This document shows positions 14,718-27,802 of a DNA stretch of 32,000 bases, piece by piece (positions within the stretch are counted from its first letter, which is position 1; the number at the start of each line of letters is the position of its first letter). The notes under the pieces were generated by a model, which worked only from the letters and a program-made list of their open reading frames with translations, was not told the origin of the DNA and made no database searches. The translations under genes were made by a program, and so were the position numbers. Source of the DNA: Candidatus Heimdallarchaeota archaeon (GTDB lineage: Archaea > Asgardarchaeota > Heimdallarchaeia > Heimdallarchaeales > Heimdallarchaeaceae); NCBI GenBank assembly GCA_030668875.1, contig DAOVER010000009.1, positions 30,001 through 62,000 of the forward strand, given 5' to 3'.

Positions 14718-17700
14718 TTATTTCACCAGAGTATATGCGTTTATACCATTTACCTTTTTGATAGAAACTATCGGGGTACTACTACCATGTGAGGGAGAAA
14801 TGGTTTCTATTGCATTAATTATATAATTGAAAGACCCCTCATTCTGAACCCATGGAGCAATATTTAAATCCTTAACAGTAAGTTGCTTTTCGTTACTTGA
14901 TTCAATTTTGCATTGAGCTGCTAATTTTTGGTTTAGCAGAATTAGATAGTTGTCTCCAGAAATATCGAATCTTTCAGGCATATTATTCCTTAACAAAGAA
15001 TGTGCTACATCTGTAGGATGTAGAACATAGAATCGTCCCCTATCCTTTTCTGAGGAATAATCTCTCAAAACTTCAAACTGTTTCTCATGCATAATTAGGT
15101 CATCATAATTCTTTGAAGTGATATAGTAAAAACTCAAATCATCCTCTATGAACCGTCCACCGAATATTTCTTCCTCTTCAATTAGAGCGGATAATATCTC
15201 TTTAATTTTTATCTTTGTTAAAATAACAGGAATAAATGCACGTTCAATTATCTGATTCTCAGAAGGTAACCCTAAGCTGGAAACTATATCTTTTACGTAT
15301 CTTCTTTTGATAACTGTTAAGTCATCATCAAATTCTGGAATGAAATTAGAGATATCCCAATACTCCTGAGGGAGATATGTGTTATTAATTGATCTTACTC
15401 CAATAAGCATATTCGTTTCTAATATCCGTAAAGAGGGTTTTAGCGCCGTACCAGGACCTGTCCACTTATGGGATAAATCTTGTAGATTTGAAGTTCCTTT
15501 TGTTATATGTTTCAAGAGTTCCTCATGTTCAATTTTGAGTTTTCTCCTTTTCCTCAAACCACTTTTTCTGTAACGAGCAAATGTTAAAGAGTATAATTTA
15601 CCATCTTGACAGAGAATTTTCTTTTCCTCTAATAATTTGTTAACTAAGAAGGTAATTATTGCGTTCATTGTCTCTGGAAATCTTGTAATAATCACCTCAA
15701 AACTTAGCACTCCAAAATGGTTGATTAGGGATAGTAAACTGGTTTCATTTATTGCAAGAGAATCTTTTCTTAACCAAACTTTATCCATAACATACTTTGA
15801 TACAATATTTTTTGAGAAGACGCGTGTGATTGTGTCTCCACCCACTAAAGTATCTTGAATTAGAATAAAACCTGTTTTAATTAAAGAATCTTTGATGAAT
15901 TTATTCACTGTTGAAAGGACGGATTTTCCATTTATATCCTCTATTTGTAAACTGAGTACGCGGTGGATTTTTCGAGTATAAGAAACAAGTTCCGATGCAA
16001 TTTTTTGAAGCAATAGGAAATTGTAAGCAACTATATCATCAAGCTGCAAATTATAGATCTGTAGATACTTCCCACGGTGAAGTTTGTACTCAACCGAGCC
16101 TACAACCTCACCATCCAAAAGAATAGGATCAATCTTTCCTTCTCCATAAACATCTCGGATGTGAAGTCTTAACCCTAATTTCGTAAATGGATCAGAACGT
16201 GGAAGGATAAGTGTTTTCTCATCTTCATGTAGAGAGAGGTTGATGAATTCTGCTTTTAGTTTACTAATAGTTTCAAAACGTTTATGAGTCAGATAGTAAT
16301 TAGTTTCTCTAGTTGTGAGTTTCTTTTCGATTATTTTCTTCTTCTTAATTAAATCACGGATATGTTTTTCAACATCACTATACTTGAATCCTGAGATGTG
16401 TGTAAGCTCAATCAAGGATACTGGTCCTAACGATTCTATCAGTTTATTCAAGATGAATTGGATGCTTTTATCATAATCAGGTAATTTATCAAATGTGAAA
16501 TACCTTGATGAGATATCATAAACATTCGGTACAAATTGTTTTGGCAGAAATGAATCAATAGCAACAGACTTTCTCACTAGATGAAGTGTTTTGTCAAGAA
16601 TCATGATGCTTTCTTGTATTATATCCTCGTCAAGATCAATATGTTCAACCAACTCTCTTCTTGTCATTGGTCCATATTTTTGAAGTGTGTTGAGAATTTT
16701 CTCCTCAACCTTAGACAATTCGAACTTTTCTCTGTATGCGACATAGTAATAGGGGAAATGCTCTCTACTCACATAAGACAATCTATTATGACTAAATCTT
16801 CCTTGAATGATTTCGTTTTTTTCAACAAGCTCTCTTACCCAATCAATATCGTAATCTTTAATTCTGAATGCCAAAGAACTCAAATCTGCAATAGAACCAA
16901 AGTCATCTAACAGATACAATATGCTTTCTTTTCCAATAAGAGCTTGTTTAAAATAAGAATCAACAGTGAAATAATAATGAACGAAATTTAGTTCTTCTGA
17001 GGTTAATAATAGTGAATCCTGTTTTCGATTACTCAAATTCCTTAGTAGTTCTCTATCTTCAAGTCTAATAAATTGAGGTTCGAGTGTGGAGGCAATAATC
17101 TGTCCTTTTAGAATCTTATTCTTTTGTTCTAACTCCATAAGAGTTCTTGAGATTTTCTCTTGATCTAGAAGAAGGTATTCAACTATATCACTTTCCGACG
17201 AAGGACCATTGGTTTTTAGATATCGTAGAACAATGTTCTCCAAACAAACTTCAGGATCAAGCTTCCTGGCTTTTACTCTAAACGATTCTGGAACAAAATC
17301 TTCTATTGAAATATATTTCCAAGTTGTTTTTCCTTTATATGTCTCAAAATCCATTCGAGTTATGAGAATAGCTCGTTCAAGCTTTTCAAGACTTAATTTA
17401 ACCTCTTGATTTGGAAGCTCTAAATCCGCTGAGATTTTTGTAGAAGATATAGGAAATTTTTCTTTGACTAAGTCAAGAATTTGTTTATCTTTTTCTGAAA
17501 GCTCAATTGACTGCAAATATATGTTCCAATAGAGGGGAAAATCCTCCAAAGAGATAGTTCTTCGTTCTGTTTGAGAAAGATAAATCTCCATGAACTCTTT
17601 ATTATTGTGTAAAGCAAAAGCCCACGATTTAATTTGTTTGGGGTCAGAAATACAGCGATGATATATGCTAGGAGGCACACTTTCTATTGTTCTTATTGGA

Positions 17701-20444
17701 GAAATAGCTTTAATAGCACGCCTCAGCTGTTTAAGAGAAGATATAGGAAGTTCTTCATTTCTGTAACTACGGTTATTGAATATACTGTCTACTAAATCCT
17801 TCCTGAAAAGTATCTCTTTGGTGCCTTCTTTTCCAAAAACCTTGGACAGAACCTGTTGGTGTAATTCTCTTAGTAAAGCACTTCTATCAGAAATCTGAAC
17901 GATATCCGCTATACCTAAAAGAACAATACCATGAGCAAAAGGGCTTGGAATATCTGTTAATGGAGCTATTTTATATGTATATTCTCCTTTTTCTAACTTC
18001 TTAATGACAGAGTGAGAATTTTCTAAATCCATATAGTCTCGCAAGATTTCTCGATATGTCTCCTTAATAACACAGAAAGAATCTTGCGTTTTTAGAGTTG
18101 GAAATAATCTTCGTGCGTACATGGTTTGTCTGGAAACAGGAATGTATTTGTTACCGCTCCTTCTTAAGATCATAAGAGCTCTATTTGCAACATGTCTAAA
18201 TCGTGTTTGGAAAAGTTCAGTGTTTATGATAGCTTGTTTAACAAGATTTTCCAAGTTATCTGAAGAAATCAAGTTTGGGATGACTGAAGTATCATAGATT
18301 TTGCCTGTTGGTAGCATCAATAAGAAACCGTTATCATTAACAGCTGAAGCTACATCAGCATTAATTTCTCTACCAATAGAAAAAGCAAATGCTCGTGCAA
18401 GAGTATCATTAACCCTCCTTCCAAAGTAAGCATGAAAAATGATAGTCATTCTTCCTTGAGGATCCAAAAATGACTCAATTAGGAGAGATTTTTCGTTTGG
18501 AATAATATTCAAAAAGAGTTGCTGTTCCTTCACATAATCAACAATCGTTTTAGCAATTATCTCATCAACTTTAAATGAAGCTTGAATCCATTCAACTGTT
18601 TCTTTGGCTTTCTCTTTCTGAATTCTCTGAGCAACAACATCAACAAATCTACCAATTTGTTGGGATAATTCAAATGATCGAGGTAGTTCTTCTCCAACCC
18701 AATTAGGTATTGTTGGTCTTCTTCCGAACGACTCCGAAACTACTACACGTAATCCAACAGTTCGTTTGAATTGGTAAGAATGGCTTCCTAATACAAAAAC
18801 ATCTCCAGGAGTAAGTTTTTCAACAAACTTTTCTGAAAGAACCCCTATTCGAGTCCTATAAGTTTCAAGTTCAACCCTGTAATTTGAATTTTCAGGAATT
18901 GTACCAATATTCGTATAAAATATTAATCGAGTATTCCTCTTCTTTCCAAACGCTTTTTCTTTATGATCATACCAAATCTTTCGGTAAACTTTCTTCTCTT
19001 CAATATCTAGATTATATCCACCCAAGTACTCTAATACATTAATGTAATCAACGAAACTAAGCGTTCTGTAATTATACGAGCGCTTAATCATTGTGTAAGC
19101 TTCATCTACATTCCATCTTTTTGTTATGGATATTCCAACTATAAACTGAGCAAGAACATCAAGACAGTTTTGAGGAATCTGAACTTTATCCAGCACATGA
19201 CCATAAGCACTTTTTGTCAGCACGGCGCATTCTATAGCATCATCTCTACCAGTAACAAGGAGCCTTCCACGTGCTATTCTATCAAGAGCATGACCACTAC
19301 GACCAACTCGTTGAAGATATTTTGCTACTGTTTTGGGTGAACCTATCTGTGAAACTAACTCAACGCTTCCGATATCTATCCCCAACTCTAAGGAAGTCGA
19401 AGTTACAGCTGCAATTAACTCATTATTTTTCAACCTGTCTTCTACATCCAACCTAATTTCTCTCGATAAACTAGAATGGTGTACAGCTATAAGAGGTGTA
19501 TATTCATCCCCTAGAAACTCTTTGAGTTTGAAAGCAACGCTTTCTGCTCCTTTTCTCGTATTTGTAAAAATAATTGATGTTTCATGATCTAATGTAAGAT
19601 CAGCTAAAACAGAATAAATCCCTTCTTGCACCGCAACATAGGGAGTATGAAGCAAATCTTTTACTGGGCTTAATACTTCAAGGTCTAGTTTTCTTTGCGG
19701 AGGAAGATTAGCTATGTAGCAGTCGTTTTCTACACCATTATCATCTCTTCCAACAAGAAACCGAGCTATTTCTTCTATAGGTGCTTGTGTTGCAGATAGT
19801 CCAATCTTAGTTAATTTTTTCTCTACAAGTTGAGTTTGAAGATATTCTAAAAATAAAGATAAAAAAACACCTCTCTTGTTTGAGCTAACTTCGTGAATTT
19901 CATCTAGTATAAGCCAGCGAACACTTCTCAGATGTTGTGAGAACTTTGGAGAAGTTAGGATTAAACCTAAGCTCTCAGGAGTTGTAATCAATATATGGGG
20001 AGGAGTTTTCAGCATCTTTACTCGTTGAGATTGAGGAGTGTCTCCTGTCCGAACATCAACTCTTATTTTAGGCACAACAATATTATTTGCAGCTGCAAGA
20101 TCTTGAATTCCTTGCAGAGGTTCTTCTAGATTTTTTCTGATGTCATTTCCTAAAGCTTTGAGGGGGGAAATATAAAGGACATATATCTGATCTTTCAATT
20201 TCCCCTTGGTAGACTCTATGTAAAGCTCGTTAATTGCGGCTAGAAAGGCAGCAAAGGTTTTTCCTGAACCAGTTGAACTAAAAATCAGTGTGTTCTTCTG
20301 CTCATGTATTAGTGGAATAGAGTATAATTGTGGAGGTGTAAAACCTGCAGGGAATCTAGAGGTAAACCAATCTTTTATTTCCTCAGCTAGAAAAGAGAAA
20401 ATAGAATCAGCTGTGGAGGGGTTATCTAGATAATGCAGAGTCAT
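14718..20444 (-). CDS. lhr: Lhr-family SF2 DEAD/H helicase with about 1000-aa C-terminal extension of winged-helix/AlkZ-like repeats
   Basis: TPPQ, motif I SSTGSGKT, YISPLKALGNDI, TTPESL, DEIH, SAT, HHSSL, TSLELGIDIG, QRVGRSGH, LDVLAQ, FRHVANR. The core ends near residue 870. Confidence 0.92.
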   Translation of the reverse strand: MTLHYLDNPSTADSIFSFLAEEIKDWFTSRFPAGFTPPQLYSIPLIHEQKNTLIFSSTGSGKTFAAFLAAINELYIESTKGKLKDQIYVLYISPLKALGNDIRKNLEEPLQGIQDLAAANNIVVPKIRVDVRTGDTPQSQRVKMLKTPPHILITTPESLGLILTSPKFSQHLRSVRWLILDEIHEVSSNKRGVFLSLFLEYLQTQLVEKKLTKIGLSATQAPIEEIARFLVGRDDNGVENDCYIANLPPQRKLDLEVLSPVKDLLHTPYVAVQEGIYSVLADLTLDHETSIIFTNTRKGAESVAFKLKEFLGDEYTPLIAVHHSSLSREIRLDVEDRLKNNELIAAVTSTSLELGIDIGSVELVSQIGSPKTVAKYLQRVGRSGHALDRIARGRLLVTGRDDAIECAVLTKSAYGHVLDKVQIPQNCLDVLAQFIVGISITKRWNVDEAYTMIKRSYNYRTLSFVDYINVLEYLGGYNLDIEEKKVYRKIWYDHKEKAFGKKRNTRLIFYTNIGTIPENSNYRVELETYRTRIGVLSEKFVEKLTPGDVFVLGSHSYQFKRTVGLRVVVSESFGRRPTIPNWVGEELPRSFELSQQIGRFVDVVAQRIQKEKAKETVEWIQASFKVDEIIAKTIVDYVKEQQLFLNIIPNEKSLLIESFLDPQGRMTIIFHAYFGRRVNDTLARAFAFSIGREINADVASAVNDNGFLLMLPTGKIYDTSVIPNLISSDNLENLVKQAIINTELFQTRFRHVANRALMILRRSGNKYIPVSRQTMYARRLFPTLKTQDSFCVIKETYREILRDYMDLENSHSVIKKLEKGEYTYKIAPLTDIPSPFAHGIVLLGIADIVQISDRSALLRELHQQVLSKVFGKEGTKEILFRKDLVDSIFNNRSYRNEELPISSLKQLRRAIKAISPIRTIESVPPSIYHRCISDPKQIKSWAFALHNNKEFMEIYLSQTERRTISLEDFPLYWNIYLQSIELSEKDKQILDLVKEKFPISSTKISADLELPNQEVKLSLEKLERAILITRMDFETYKGKTTWKYISIEDFVPESFRVKARKLDPEVCLENIVLRYLKTNGPSSESDIVEYLLLDQEKISRTLMELEQKNKILKGQIIASTLEPQFIRLEDRELLRNLSNRKQDSLLLTSEELNFVHYYFTVDSYFKQALIGKESILYLLDDFGSIADLSSLAFRIKDYDIDWVRELVEKNEIIQGRFSHNRLSYVSREHFPYYYVAYREKFELSKVEEKILNTLQKYGPMTRRELVEHIDLDEDIIQESIMILDKTLHLVRKSVAIDSFLPKQFVPNVYDISSRYFTFDKLPDYDKSIQFILNKLIESLGPVSLIELTHISGFKYSDVEKHIRDLIKKKKIIEKKLTTRETNYYLTHKRFETISKLKAEFINLSLHEDEKTLILPRSDPFTKLGLRLHIRDVYGEGKIDPILLDGEVVGSVEYKLHRGKYLQIYNLQLDDIVAYNFLLLQKIASELVSYTRKIHRVLSLQIEDINGKSVLSTVNKFIKDSLIKTGFILIQDTLVGGDTITRVFSKNIVSKYVMDKVWLRKDSLAINETSLLSLINHFGVLSFEVIITRFPETMNAIITFLVNKLLEEKKILCQDGKLYSLTFARYRKSGLRKRRKLKIEHEELLKHITKGTSNLQDLSHKWTGPGTALKPSLRILETNMLIGVRSINNTYLPQEYWDISNFIPEFDDDLTVIKRRYVKDIVSSLGLPSENQIIERAFIPVILTKIKIKEILSALIEEEEIFGGRFIEDDLSFYYITSKNYDDLIMHEKQFEVLRDYSSEKDRGRFYVLHPTDVAHSLLRNNMPERFDISGDNYLILLNQKLAAQCKIESSNEKQLTVKDLNIAPWVQNEGSFNYIINAIETISPSHGSSTPIVSIKKVNGINAYTLVK

Positions 20445-23645: not shown

Positions 23646-23718
23646 GAGAAAACTACTGACTGCTCATAGAAAGAAACAAATAAAAATAACAACCAAAGCA
23701 CTAAAGTGAGTGACGAAA

Positions 23719-24021
23719 ATGGTCAAAATTCCTGAATCAATGTTCAAATACTGCCCAAAATGCGGCAAACACGTCAATATGAAAGTGAAACAAGAGAAAT
23801 CTGCCAGAAGAGCGGGTGGATTTTCTGCGATGGCTAGAAGAGAGAAAAGGAAAAGACGAGGTTACGGTAATAAAGGAAGGTTTAGTAAGCGTCCAGTCAC
23901 TCAGACCAAGATGGCTTCTAAAACATCTAAGAAGGTTGATTTAAGATTATCTTGCCCTGATTGTGGCAAAAAATGGGTGCTTTCTTATCCAAGAACCAAA
24001 AGAATAGAATTCATCAAATAG
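23719..24021 (+). CDS. rpl44e: 50S ribosomal protein L44e (eL42)
   Basis: MVKIP....YCPKCGKH, RRKRRGYG, K..KKVDLRLSCPDCGK, RIEF. Confidence 0.93.
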   Translation: MVKIPESMFKYCPKCGKHVNMKVKQEKSARRAGGFSAMARREKRKRRGYGNKGRFSKRPVTQTKMASKTSKKVDLRLSCPDCGKKWVLSYPRTKRIEFIK

Positions 24022-24083
24022 ACGAATTTTTCATTCTTTTCTTACAATCATTTTTCGTTTTGTTTTTCATTCCCTACGAAATA

Positions 24084-24091
24084 TTTTATAT
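24084..24091 (+). promoter_or_regulatory. Putative TATA box (TTTTATAT) of sucCD
   Basis: About 23 nt upstream of the ATG at 24115. Confidence 0.45.
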
Positions 24092-24114
24092 ACTTTACAA
24101 TTTTGGCTTTCATA

Positions 24115-25257
24115 ATGAGCATGCTTTATGAATTTGAAGGAAAACTATTATTCAAAGATAGTAAAATTCCAATCCCTTGCATTAGTATTTATACGGATGC
24201 TGAAAGTATAAAGCAATTTGCAGAAGAGATTGGAAGCGACACAATGATGGCAAAGGGTCAAGCTCTAGCCGGAGGTAGAGGAAAAGCAGGATTAATCAAG
24301 AAAGTAACAAAAGAAACTGCTGAGGAATACATTAAGAGTATAATTGGTAGAGAGCACAAAGGAAAACCAGTAGCAGCTGTTATGCTAGAAGAATTAGTTG
24401 AGATCACTAAAGAATATTATTTGGCTTTGATGTTAGATAATAAATCAGGTTCATATCTTATGCTTGCCAGTACTATGGGAGGTGTAGATATTGAGGAAGT
24501 GGCTGAAAACCACCCTACTGAAATACACCGCACGTTACTTCCCATCAATGTTGATCCTCAGACATATCATTTCATGGAACTAGGCAAAGAGATGGGTTTT
24601 AAGGCTAAAACACTGACACAGTTTGCAAGTATTTGTGTTAAGATGACACAGATGGCACTCAAACATGATTTGACACTTGTCGAAATCAATCCACTTGTTA
24701 TCACTCCAGATGATAAGCTAATAGCAGCTGATTCTAAGGTAGTAATTGATGGAAACGCTTACTTTAGGCAGCCTTCCATAGCAGCATTGCAATCCCAAAG
24801 AGATCAACATACTGATTTGGAATTTGAAGCTACTCAAGCTGGAATTAGTTATGTTCAACTTGATGGTGACATAGGTATCATTGCAGGTGGTGCAGGGTTA
24901 TCTATGGCTACTTGTGATTTGCTGGAATTTTATGGTAGTTCTCCCGCTAACTTTCTAGATGTTGGTGGTGGAGCTAATGATGAGAAAGTCTACAAAGCTC
25001 TTGAACTTATATCAAAAATGGATGTTAAGGGGATATTTGTGAACTTCTTCGCTGGTATCACTAGATGTGATGATGTAGCCAACGGAGTAGTTAGTGCAAA
25101 TAAAAAACTAAACATCAAAGTACCTATAGTTATTCGAATGATTGGAACAAAAGATGCTGAAGGTATAAAAATCTTGGAAGAAAACGGAATACACGCTTAC
25201 AATAAAATGGAACCATCAGCTAAGAAAATTGTTGAACTTGTTAAAGGAGGAAATTAA
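24115..25257 (+). CDS. sucC: Succinyl-CoA synthetase (ADP-forming) beta subunit
   Basis: LYEFEGK, KGQALAGGRGKAGLI, GGVDIEEVA, EINPL, DSK, GGAGL.MAT.D, ANFLDVGGGA, NFFAGITRCD.VA.G, R..GT. Confidence 0.95.
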   Translation: MSMLYEFEGKLLFKDSKIPIPCISIYTDAESIKQFAEEIGSDTMMAKGQALAGGRGKAGLIKKVTKETAEEYIKSIIGREHKGKPVAAVMLEELVEITKEYYLALMLDNKSGSYLMLASTMGGVDIEEVAENHPTEIHRTLLPINVDPQTYHFMELGKEMGFKAKTLTQFASICVKMTQMALKHDLTLVEINPLVITPDDKLIAADSKVVIDGNAYFRQPSIAALQSQRDQHTDLEFEATQAGISYVQLDGDIGIIAGGAGLSMATCDLLEFYGSSPANFLDVGGGANDEKVYKALELISKMDVKGIFVNFFAGITRCDDVANGVVSANKKLNIKVPIVIRMIGTKDAEGIKILEENGIHAYNKMEPSAKKIVELVKGGN

Positions 25258-25258
25258 G

Positions 25259-26131
25259 ATGGCTGTACTATTAGATAAATCTACTGAAGTGATTGTACAA
25301 GGAATGACTGGAAAACAAGGTAGTTTCCATGCAAAATCAATGATAGAATACGGTACACAAGTTGTGGCTGGAGTAACCCCTGGTAAAGGAGGACAGGAAG
25401 TTTTAGGTGTTCCAATATATGACACAATGAAAGAAGCTGTAGAAGCAACACAAGCAACAGCTTCTGTTGTTTTTATACCAGCCCCCTTTGTTTATTCAGC
25501 TGCTCTTGAAGCAGTTGATTCAGGTATTGAACTTCTAACTATAATAACTGAAGGAGTACCAGTAAGAGACACAGCAAGAATCAGAAGAAGAGTATTTGAA
25601 CAAAATGCAACTTTAGTCGGTCCAAATTGTCCAGGCCTCATAACTCCTGGTGAAGCAAAAATCGGTATCATTCCAGGGGCTATTTGTTCTAAAGGAAATG
25701 TTGGAATTGTAAGCCGAAGTGGAACTCTTACTTATGAAATCATCCAACATCTCACATTGAGTGGTTATGGGCAATCTACATGCATTGGGCTTGGCGGAGA
25801 TCCTGTTAGAGGTATAGATTTCAAGGAAAGTCTTAGATTATTCGAACAAGATCCTGAAACAAAACACATTGTTTTAGTTGGAGAGATTGGTGGGACAGGG
25901 GAACAAGAAGCCGCTCAACTCGTAATAGAAGAAATTTCTAAACCCGTTTATGCTTTTATCGCCGGAAATGGTACATGGGTTAAGCCTGGAAAGCAAATGG
26001 GACACGCTGGAGCAATAGTACATGGTAAATCAGGAACTGCTCAAGAAAAACTTCGTATTTTGAATGAAGCAGGAATCTTAACAGCTAATACTCCTAGTGA
26101 AATTCCAAACAAAATTAAAGAAAATATGTGA
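25259..26131 (+). CDS. sucD: Succinyl-CoA synthetase alpha subunit
   Basis: VQGMTGKQG.FH, GVTPGKGG, IITEG, GPNCPG, SRSGTLTYE, GLGGDP, GEIGG, phospho-His motif MGHAGA. Confidence 0.96.
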   Translation: MAVLLDKSTEVIVQGMTGKQGSFHAKSMIEYGTQVVAGVTPGKGGQEVLGVPIYDTMKEAVEATQATASVVFIPAPFVYSAALEAVDSGIELLTIITEGVPVRDTARIRRRVFEQNATLVGPNCPGLITPGEAKIGIIPGAICSKGNVGIVSRSGTLTYEIIQHLTLSGYGQSTCIGLGGDPVRGIDFKESLRLFEQDPETKHIVLVGEIGGTGEQEAAQLVIEEISKPVYAFIAGNGTWVKPGKQMGHAGAIVHGKSGTAQEKLRILNEAGILTANTPSEIPNKIKENM

Positions 26132-26172: not shown

Positions 26173-27399
26173 TTAGTAAGGTAGAGAAGCATTGAATACA
26201 TCTTCATATTCACCAGGAATATCAGAACCAAATCTATAATAAATAGTATAGGTTATTTTGATTGTCAGGAGTAATGAGCTATTGTACTCATCTACGTTGA
26301 ATACTAACGTGCTTCCTATCAACAAATCCCCTTCTTTCTGATAGAACGAATACCAATACATGTGTCCTATTATTTTTCCATCTTGAATACCATATAGATC
26401 AAATGATTTCAATATTGCATCATATGAACCATCGTGTTTGAAATGAACATCCATTGGAAGATATACTATTCCTTCCCCTGAGAATTCATAGTTCAAAGGT
26501 TTAAGAGTAACACCATCAATTCCTGTTTCTACTCCAGGCGAGTTGATAATTGCATCTAGAATTGGTATTGCAATTATAATTGCTATGATTAATGAAGTGT
26601 ATATAATTAGTTTAGTTCTTTTTTTCTTAACTGTAAACAGCTCAATAAAATTCTTCTTGGTTTTCTCCCACCATTTAATCATTATCTCCTTGAAAGCAAC
26701 CACAAAGGATTTCTTAGATCCAGGTTTTTCCACTTTTTTATCTTCATCCTTTTCTGATGCTTCTTCTACAACTTCTGAAGATTTATTATTAGTTGTTTCT
26801 CTTTCTTTATCTTCATCTTCTTTCTTTTTATCTGGGACAAAGATCAAATAAAGAGCTACACCAATCAATAAACCTATGAGAAGATATCTAAAAACTGGGT
26901 ATTCTATTATCCAAAGTCTAAGATAACCAATTTTTGGAATAAGGAAAACCGTTTTCCCTATAACACTTTCATAAGGAATCAAAGATGTAGTCAAGCTAAA
27001 ATCATCTACCCAATCATTATTATCCCCACTTACTCTAAAGTAATATTGGTCTCCTTCTCCGCTTTCGACTATGGTGATATTCACCACGCGATGGATAACT
27101 AAAAGCGATGAAACTTCAGAATCATACACGATTACATCTCCAAGTTCAATATCTTCTGGAGCAGATTTGAGAAGGAGAAACATATCTCCTTGATCATATA
27201 CGGGACACATTGAAGAATTAGGACATGGTCCATTTTCAATTACCACTAACGAGATACCAAAGATACCTCCAAACATCATCTTAACAAAGAAGAACAAGAC
27301 CAGTGCCAAGACAATCATGTAAATGGATTCTTTAAGATTGATATTTTTCTTAATTTTATCTAGAGTAGAAGACATTGGGTGAGAGTAGGGGGAAGACAT
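26173..27399 (-). CDS. sec11: Signal peptidase I (Sec11/S26B type) with C-terminal extra TM and extracytoplasmic domain
   Basis: TM1, SSMCP (Ser63), GD, VIHRV (His103), GDNNDWVDD, IGK...IPKIG, TM2. Then about 220 extra residues. Confidence 0.85.
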   Translation of the reverse strand: MSSPYSHPMSSTLDKIKKNINLKESIYMIVLALVLFFFVKMMFGGIFGISLVVIENGPCPNSSMCPVYDQGDMFLLLKSAPEDIELGDVIVYDSEVSSLLVIHRVVNITIVESGEGDQYYFRVSGDNNDWVDDFSLTTSLIPYESVIGKTVFLIPKIGYLRLWIIEYPVFRYLLIGLLIGVALYLIFVPDKKKEDEDKERETTNNKSSEVVEEASEKDEDKKVEKPGSKKSFVVAFKEIMIKWWEKTKKNFIELFTVKKKRTKLIIYTSLIIAIIIAIPILDAIINSPGVETGIDGVTLKPLNYEFSGEGIVYLPMDVHFKHDGSYDAILKSFDLYGIQDGKIIGHMYWYSFYQKEGDLLIGSTLVFNVDEYNSSLLLTIKITYTIYYRFGSDIPGEYEDVFNASLPY

Positions 27400-27481: not shown

Positions 27482-27802
27482 ATGTCACCCATGAAACCTC
27501 AATCACGATTAGCGAATGTAACTGAGATTAATGTGAAATCTAAAATTAGAGCTAAAAAAACCACCATTATAGAAATAAGAGGAAGACTAGGAGATACGGG
27601 ATGGCAGTTTTCGGAAGAAAAAGTATCAATTGATAAAAACAGCAATGTTCTTTCTATCACTTTAGGTATTTTCAAAAAGCCAGGCATGGCAGGAATGGAT
27701 GTTATAACTGAATTCGGAAGGGAAATTAATCTGATATTTCCACATAAAGGTAGTTGGAAAATTCGATGCAATAAACATGAAATTGATGTTGAAGTAAGGT
27801 AA
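27482..27802 (+). CDS. Hypothetical small beta-rich protein
   Basis: 106-aa ORF with alternating beta-strand pattern and plausible spacing from its neighbours. Weak resemblance to PrcB C-terminal-like domains. Confidence 0.6.
   Translation: MSPMKPQSRLANVTEINVKSKIRAKKTTIIEIRGRLGDTGWQFSEEKVSIDKNSNVLSITLGIFKKPGMAGMDVITEFGREINLIFPHKGSWKIRCNKHEIDVEVR

Follow-up and report, generated by a model that had tools for sequence, protein, structure and literature searches.

A Sec11-type signal peptidase of Heimdallarchaeia fused to a membrane-anchored beta-sandwich, a candidate in-cis counterpart of SPCS3

A 32,000-nucleotide stretch of DNA from Candidatus Heimdallarchaeota archaeon (assembly GCA_030668875.1, contig DAOVER010000009.1, positions 30,001 to 62,000; referred to here as the window) carries on its reverse strand, at positions 26173 to 27399, an uninterrupted open reading frame (ORF) of 408 codons plus a stop codon, and analysis of this gene revealed a signal peptidase of the Sec11 type that is extended at its C terminus by a membrane-anchored beta-sandwich. 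The first-pass annotation of this DNA had described a Sec11 peptidase in which a second transmembrane helix (TM2), a K/E-rich linker, and a third transmembrane helix (TM3) lead to a beta-rich domain placed on the protease side of the membrane, and our results support this composition together with the probable topology. We consider it reasonably probable that the sandwich is an accessory domain acting in cis to stabilize or position the Sec11 active site, and hence a functional analogue of SPCS3 (Spc3), an essential accessory subunit of the signal peptidase complex (SPC) of eukaryotes; homology between the sandwich and SPCS3 is not supported. The protein would be the housekeeping type I signal peptidase of this Heimdallarchaeaceae archaeon, equipped with an accessory domain of its own.

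The identity of the catalytic part was examined by profile, structure, and alignment comparisons. Residues 23 to 176 matched the archaeal signal peptidase I model TIGR02228 with 67.6 bits (curated cutoff, 51.85), and human SEC11A (E value, 7e-14) and SEC11C (1e-13) were matched when a profile of the peptidase family was used as the query. The AlphaFold model matched SEC11A (7p2p_A) with a Foldseek E value of 1.8e-5 and a template modeling score (TM-score) of 0.65 by target. The catalytic boxes (Ser63-Met-x-Pro, His103-Arg, and Gly125-Asp-Asn-Asn) align with SM.P, HRV, and GDNN of human SEC11A, and in the alignment of 24 homologues S63, H103, R104, G125, D126, N127, and N128 were invariant, with D132 conserved in at least 90%. 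Because of the TIGR02228 score, the SEC11A/C matches, the fold match, and these invariant residues, the protein is, on sequence and model grounds, a Sec11-type signal peptidase I of MEROPS family S26B with a predicted Ser-His-Asp catalytic set. The gene was also the sole TIGR02228 match in a six-frame search of the genome (70.5 bits; genome 92% complete). One detail of the first-pass annotation had to be revised, namely, the "eukaryote-like GDNN..VDD" of the catalytic part, which stems from a small deletion in this sequence; relatives carry GDNxxSNxxxD, the ordinary box E of the endoplasmic reticulum (ER) and archaeal type.

Compared with archaeal and ER-type Sec11 (S26B, TIGR02228; human SEC11A/C in PDB 7P2P, 7P2Q, and 9RJB), the N-terminal 190 residues are alike, sharing the anchor with its N terminus inside (N-in), the boxes around Ser63, His103-Arg104, GDN125-127, and Asp132, and a hydrophobic helix after the catalytic domain. 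Unlike ordinary archaeal Sec11, whose frames span ∼190 to 260 amino acids (aa) in most other Asgard families, the protein is ∼200 residues longer, adding a charged cytoplasmic linker, a third transmembrane helix, and an extra extracytoplasmic domain. Such long forms score lower against TIGR02228 (60 to 80 bits) than short forms do (90 to 120 bits). The features of the gene are as follows, with window coordinates, all on the reverse strand.

26173..27399, reverse strand: whole ORF, 408 codons plus stop; likely start at Met9 (27375), giving 400 aa
27271..27336, reverse strand: first transmembrane helix (TM1), N-in signal anchor after a Lys-rich segment (aa 22 to 43; a helix in the model, hydrophobicity conserved)
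26899..27270, reverse strand: Sec11/S26B catalytic domain (aa 44 to 167; TIGR02228, SEC11A/C, 7p2p_A)
27211-27213, 27091-27093, and 27022-27024, reverse strand: putative catalytic residues Ser63, His103, and Asp126 (of GDN), all invariant
26839..26898, reverse strand: TM2, predicted to return the chain to the cytoplasm (aa 168 to 187; matched in alignment to the hydrophobic segment at the C terminus of SEC11A/C)
26611..26838, reverse strand: predicted cytoplasmic linker (aa 188 to 263), comprising a K/E-rich disordered part, an amphipathic helix (232 to 256), and KKKRTK (257 to 262)
26545..26610, reverse strand: TM3, predicted to serve the C-terminal domain as a type II anchor (aa 264 to 285; present in 36/36 aligned family members)
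26176..26544, reverse strand: predicted extracytoplasmic seven-strand immunoglobulin (Ig)-like beta-sandwich (aa 286 to 408; invariant Trp349 at 26353-26355)

Two structure models were available for the extension, a full-length AlphaFold2 (AF2) model with a predicted local distance difference test (pLDDT) value of 73.6 and a second one with 82.4. In the models and the family alignment, every element that the first-pass annotation had listed after the catalytic domain and TM2 was recovered, including the K/E-rich linker, the amphipathic helix, KKKRTK, TM3, and the beta-rich domain. The K/E-rich part at residues 189 to 230 had pLDDT values below 50, and the full-length AF2 model reached a predicted template modeling score of 0.64 in spite of this disordered linker of ∼40 residues. 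Seven strands were modeled between residues 293 and 403, in a block with pLDDT values of ∼74 to 93. The order KKKRTK-TM3-sandwich, seen in the models and kept across the family, is that of a type II single-pass anchor followed by a beta-sandwich on the trans side. The span 26173-26610 corresponds exactly to residues 264 to 408 plus the stop codon, that is, to TM3 and the C-terminal domain, and searches of the C-terminal part with Pfam and NCBIfam assigned no family to it.

A signal peptidase needs its catalytic domain on the outer side of the membrane. Therefore, TM2 is expected to reenter the cytoplasm and TM3 to export the sandwich, so that we infer a topology in which the sandwich and the protease domain lie on one side of the membrane and the linker lies in the cytoplasm. 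A cytoplasmic location of the linker is supported by relatives from a sister clade (P0025 to P0029, 489 aa), in which a RING-H2 finger (P0029 residues 233 to 276; PF13639, E value of 3e-8) is inserted into the linker joining the Sec11 part to the sandwich. Other family members vary at the opposite end: P0059 (524 aa) and the frames of G013 and G020 (525 and 567 aa) carry an extra N-terminal cytoplasmic extension of ∼110 residues before TM1, a segment with no Pfam match.

To describe the distribution of the fusion, we used database homologues, a profile built on the C-terminal portion (A2), and a 36-sequence alignment spanning the long-Sec11 lineages (A3). The fusion was conserved in 57 database proteins, and the whole architecture was kept at 44 to 77% identity in more than 50 database entries; the names of these full-length homologues, where given, were Heimdallarchaeaceae, Heimdallarchaeota, or Asgard, and it is from such names that the class Heimdallarchaeia was assigned. 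Against 1.84 billion cluster representatives, A2 retrieved 28 proteins at an E value of ≤0.001, mostly as the C terminus of Sec11 proteins of 350 to 425 aa. Among 399 Asgard genomes, A2 matches occurred in 48, always within frames of ∼350 to 450 aa unless a contig end truncated the frame; by family, they came to 25/29 in f1, 1/1 in f2, 9/12 in f4, and 11/12 in f7, with one marginal match in f33. Two families of the same class missed by A2 (f3 and f5) carry the same layout in divergent form (TM2, then a charged linker, TM3, and a beta-rich domain) in Sec11 frames of 354 to 410 aa, and a divergent version of this layout was also observed outside the class in f24 and f33. Thus, the survey of Asgard Sec11 architectures called for by the first-pass annotation places the long form in all seven families sampled from Heimdallarchaeia; beyond this class, two Asgard families share it, and most have the short one. 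Across A3, mean column identity was 23%; Trp349 was the sole invariant residue of the sandwich, and Gly357 was nearly so. A long Sec11 from family f8 (G001; L025, G001:C7:18000-21500) was considered as an instance of this fusion and rejected, its 370-aa frame owing its length to about five hydrophobic helices added at the N terminus, ahead of the catalytic domain.

Contact between the sandwich and the protease was assessed by complex prediction, in which residues 18 to 190 and 251 to 408 were submitted as separate chains, with the family alignment as input and three controls. The interaction prediction score from aligned errors (ipSAE) was 0.66 (runs, 0.69, 0.66, and 0.54), while the best of the three controls reached 0.00; this mark is attained in 58 of 80 solved complexes and in 2 of 110 mismatched pairs. 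Agreement of contacts between runs was at least 93%, and the partner had a pLDDT value of at least 75. The first-pass annotation had named a lack of predicted contact with the catalytic domain as one of two outcomes that would speak against its reading; a contact was predicted. Since no similarity to SPCS3 is detectable in the sandwich, recall of a solved SPC structure by the prediction model is a less likely cause of this outcome. On the catalytic side, the predicted interface comprises residues 66 to 68, 85 to 87, 104, 106 and 107, 122, 124 to 131, 138 to 140, and 150 to 155, adjoining the Ser, His, and GDN boxes, and on the sandwich side it comprises residues 300 to 315, 346 to 353, and 359 to 366. 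Trp349 is placed in this interface next to the catalytic His103, with contacts to Arg104, Gly87, and Asp126, and three interface residues (Trp349, Tyr313, and Gly362) belong to the five best-conserved positions of the sandwich.

These findings are consistent with the following arrangement. TM1 would enter the membrane with its N terminus inside, the catalytic domain would stand outside, TM2 would lead the chain back in, and, after ∼75 charged cytoplasmic residues, TM3 would export the seven-strand Ig-like sandwich of ∼120 residues. The sandwich may then pack on the surface that follows the Ser box (66 to 68), the His box (104 to 107), and the GDN box (122 to 131), making contact through the conserved strand 346 to 353, with the invariant Trp349, and through strand 359 to 366. 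In this position it could stabilize the active site and hold it in place at the membrane surface, as SPCS3/Spc3 does in trans in eukaryotes. Several observations weigh against this proposal. The docking is a prediction and rests on the model's own confidence; conservation of the interface residues as a set did not significantly exceed that of the remaining domain (Mann-Whitney p values of 0.19 and 0.055); the Ig-like sandwich is a very common fold and is uninformative on function; and archaeal Sec11 does not generally require the sandwich, because most other Asgard families, e.g., f12, f20, and f31, have short Sec11 frames (∼190 to 260 aa without the sandwich domain, as also seen in f9, f11, f14, f19, and f27).

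Alternatively, the sandwich may be an independent extracellular module, i.e., a tethered binding domain that does not regulate the protease and is joined to Sec11 by fusion only; possible partners would be the cell envelope or S-layer, a glycan, a lipid (as for LEA_2/TMEM106B-type domains), or another component of the translocon. We regard this as doubtful. The poor conservation of most of the sandwich surface, expressed in the low mean column identity of A3, would suit such a module, whereas the complex prediction with its clean controls, the location of the single invariant residue in the predicted interface, and the distribution of the domain argue against it: no intact stand-alone copy of the sandwich was found among the 1.84 billion representatives, the 399 Asgard genomes, or the database homologues. 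Nor did any family member or the genome give a match to the LEA_2 profile.

The comparison with LEA_2 deserves attention, considering that the first-pass annotation had named a generic LEA_2-type sandwich as the alternative to SPCS3. When the domain alone was the fold query, generic sandwiches of the Ig-like, GH2, and LEA_2/TMEM106B types came first; the best matches were Af_0446 (3BUT; Foldseek E value of 1.2e-4) and a plant LEA_2 cluster (TM-score of 0.63 over 147 residues, the helix included). A feature search of the ESM Atlas gave a best score of 0.79, which lies inside the noise. The archaeal domain resembles LEA_2/WHy-type and TMEM106B lumenal domains (PF03168 and PF07092; PDB 3BUT, 1XO8, and 8B7D) in both fold and anchoring, but it fails their sequence profiles just as it fails that of SPC22: neither LEA_2 nor TMEM106 profiles matched any of the 36 members at an E value of ≤10. 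Thus, judging from the models, a generic LEA_2-type sandwich would fit the fold data better than SPCS3 does, with the resemblance confined to the level of the fold.

In the human complex, the lumenal domain of SPC22/23 (SPCS3) is an extended ASF1-like beta-sandwich that embraces the SEC11 core (bioRxiv 10.1101/2020.11.11.378711); it stabilizes SEC11 and is required for activity, and the accessory subunits of the SPC are thought to have arisen with eukaryotes (bioRxiv 10.1101/2020.11.11.378711; PMC11579918). In both SPCS3 (SPC22/23, PF04573) and the archaeal extension, a single N-in transmembrane helix leads into an all-beta sandwich located on the trans side. SPCS3 packs on the Sec11 catalytic domain in the human complex, and the archaeal sandwich is predicted to pack on that of its own protein. 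They differ in that SPCS3 is a separate chain in a heterotetramer with SPC12 and SPC25, whereas the archaeal domain is always fused to Sec11, and in that SPCS3 is ASF1-like, whereas the archaeal domain is closest to sandwiches of the GH2, LEA_2, and TMEM106B types. In a passage of PMC11579918 that cites Fang et al. 1997, Spc3 is likened to part of LepB, the bacterial signal peptidase I. Domain II of LepB is likewise an extra beta-rich domain within the catalytic polypeptide; however, it is an insertion inside the catalytic domain, whereas the archaeal sandwich is a separately anchored C-terminal module, and LepB was absent from the fold matches of the archaeal domain.

True homology, in which TM3 and the sandwich would be the precursor of SPCS3/Spc3 or a descendant of that precursor, SEC11 and SPCS3 having been separated by a fission between TM2 and TM3 at eukaryogenesis, appears unlikely. 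In its strongest form, the segment would be the direct ancestor of SPCS3, and the SEC11-SPCS3 core would have been preassembled as one archaeal polypeptide that was later split, with the similarity erased by the fast evolution of small sandwiches; this version is just as improbable. Several features fit such an origin, including the SPCS3-like layout (a short basic cytoplasmic stretch, an N-in transmembrane helix, and a trans-side all-beta domain of ∼120 to 145 residues), the predicted binding to the Sec11 catalytic core, the occurrence mainly in Heimdallarchaeia, and the fact that fission between TM2 and TM3 would yield exactly the two known topologies. In addition, SPCS3 (7p2p_B) was matched weakly by the full-length model (Foldseek E value of 1.5e-2, probability of 0.85). 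That match, however, ranked 44th, with a TM-score of 0.29 and a root mean square deviation of 10, below ∼40 generic sandwiches, and with the domain alone SPCS3 was not in the top 50 of three fold searches. ASF1 and SPCS3 were both absent from the listed fold matches of the domain alone, which came from Foldseek against the PDB, from the wide and second-look VIA searches, and from the ESM Atlas.

Sequence comparisons pointed the same way. The SPC22 profile (PF04573), which the first-pass annotation had suggested as a check, gave no match at an E value of ≤10 in any member of the 24- and 36-sequence family sets, nor in the genome translated in six frames, and PDB sequences searched with the domain profile gave none at the same cutoff. 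For direct comparison, 16 SPCS3 sequences (A4; vertebrate only, effective number of sequences of 1.6) were gathered with a 52-residue seed that was 100% identical to database entries named SPCS3 carrying PF04573, with only vertebrates among the 120 matches listed. Against this vertebrate-only A4, hhalign gave probabilities of 1.0% for A3 and 0.2% for A2. In pairwise comparison with SPCS3, BLASTP gave an E value of 16, and the Smith-Waterman score of 25 lay under the shuffle mean of 27.9 ± 4.7 (z of −0.6); the four pairs of motifs that the first-pass annotation had matched by eye to SPCS3, although collinear, are thus at the level expected by chance for two beta-sandwiches. None of the 28 proteins retrieved by A2 was a eukaryote-type protein of ∼180 aa, and SPC12 and SPC25 profiles run over the whole genome gave nothing above noise. 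The Rosetta-stone argument, by which the fusion was taken to hint at an archaeal origin of the SPC core, therefore lacks support, as does the homology to SPCS3 that it needs; what stands of it is the architecture, the predicted contact, and the occurrence mainly in Heimdallarchaeia.

Finally, the notion that adjacent genes for Sec11 and a downstream membrane protein were read artificially as one ORF is very improbable, since, although a low-complexity K/E linker is prone to frameshift or misassembly and one metagenomic relative (L002) is split there, the same single frame is seen in dozens of independent assemblies, the closed genomes G015 and G016 among them, with conserved linker motifs (e.g., FTVKKKR), and the L002 break resembles damage or error and not a clean two-gene arrangement. 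In that relative, a fused gene from a marine-sediment metagenome (L002:3-840), a TAG codon replaces the Trp of an "FWP" motif after TM2 and a frameshift lies in an A-run before TM3; the copy is either a pseudogene or a low-coverage assembly error. Candidates for split or stand-alone forms were also inspected. P0065, a putative two-gene state, was rejected; it follows a Sec11 fragment, and a TAG in place of the conserved Trp codon, together with a frameshift, cuts it off from that fragment. Among the putative stand-alone forms, P0061 (572-bp contig, frame open to the contig end), P0077 (629-bp contig), P0202 to P0204 (contigs of less than 1 kb), and P0205 (marked partial) were likewise rejected. 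At short-Sec11 loci in eight other Asgard genomes, no neighboring ORF combined a single transmembrane helix with a sandwich.

No description of this Sec11-sandwich architecture was found in the searchable literature, and it appears to be undescribed so far. Whether the sandwich is a homologue or a convergent analogue of SPCS3, a catalytic core made of "Sec11 plus sandwich" would not be unique to eukaryotes, given the predicted docking. In Heimdallarchaeia, the sole Sec11 already has a membrane-anchored beta-sandwich predicted to clamp the catalytic domain, which makes it a single-chain model, in a prokaryote, for asking why peptidases of the ER type depend on such a partner. Were SPCS3 ancestry true, the SEC11-SPCS3 core would have been already assembled in the archaeal lineage leading to eukaryotes.

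With respect to the gene itself, translation probably starts at Met9 (window position 27375), giving a product of 400 aa, because P0002, which is 100% identical and 400 aa long, and the aligned homologues begin there. The first eight codons (MSSPYSHP; window positions 27375 to 27399, reverse strand) are accordingly likely untranslated, the second Met opening MSSTLDKIKK. The neighboring genes in the window (eL42, sucCD, a Lhr helicase, and an RsmB-like gene) showed no tie to secretion. On the forward strand, eL42 (L44e) is followed by the beta and alpha subunits of succinyl-CoA ligase (sucCD), the latter two overlapping by 29 bases (positions 23710 to 26131), and these genes run toward the 3′ end of the peptidase gene. 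Immediately upstream of the latter, on the opposite strand, lies a 106-aa ORF without a family match (27482 to 27802, forward strand), followed by a gene for a 303-aa protein whose sole recognized part is a C-terminal zinc ribbon (PF13240; 28221 to 29132, reverse strand). Farther away, positions 14718 to 20444 of the reverse strand encode a large Lhr-type helicase of 1908 aa (DEAD, Helicase_C, WH_Lhr, and DEAD_assoc), the C-terminal half of which contains AlkZ-like or AlkZ-related regions of the DNA glycosylase type.
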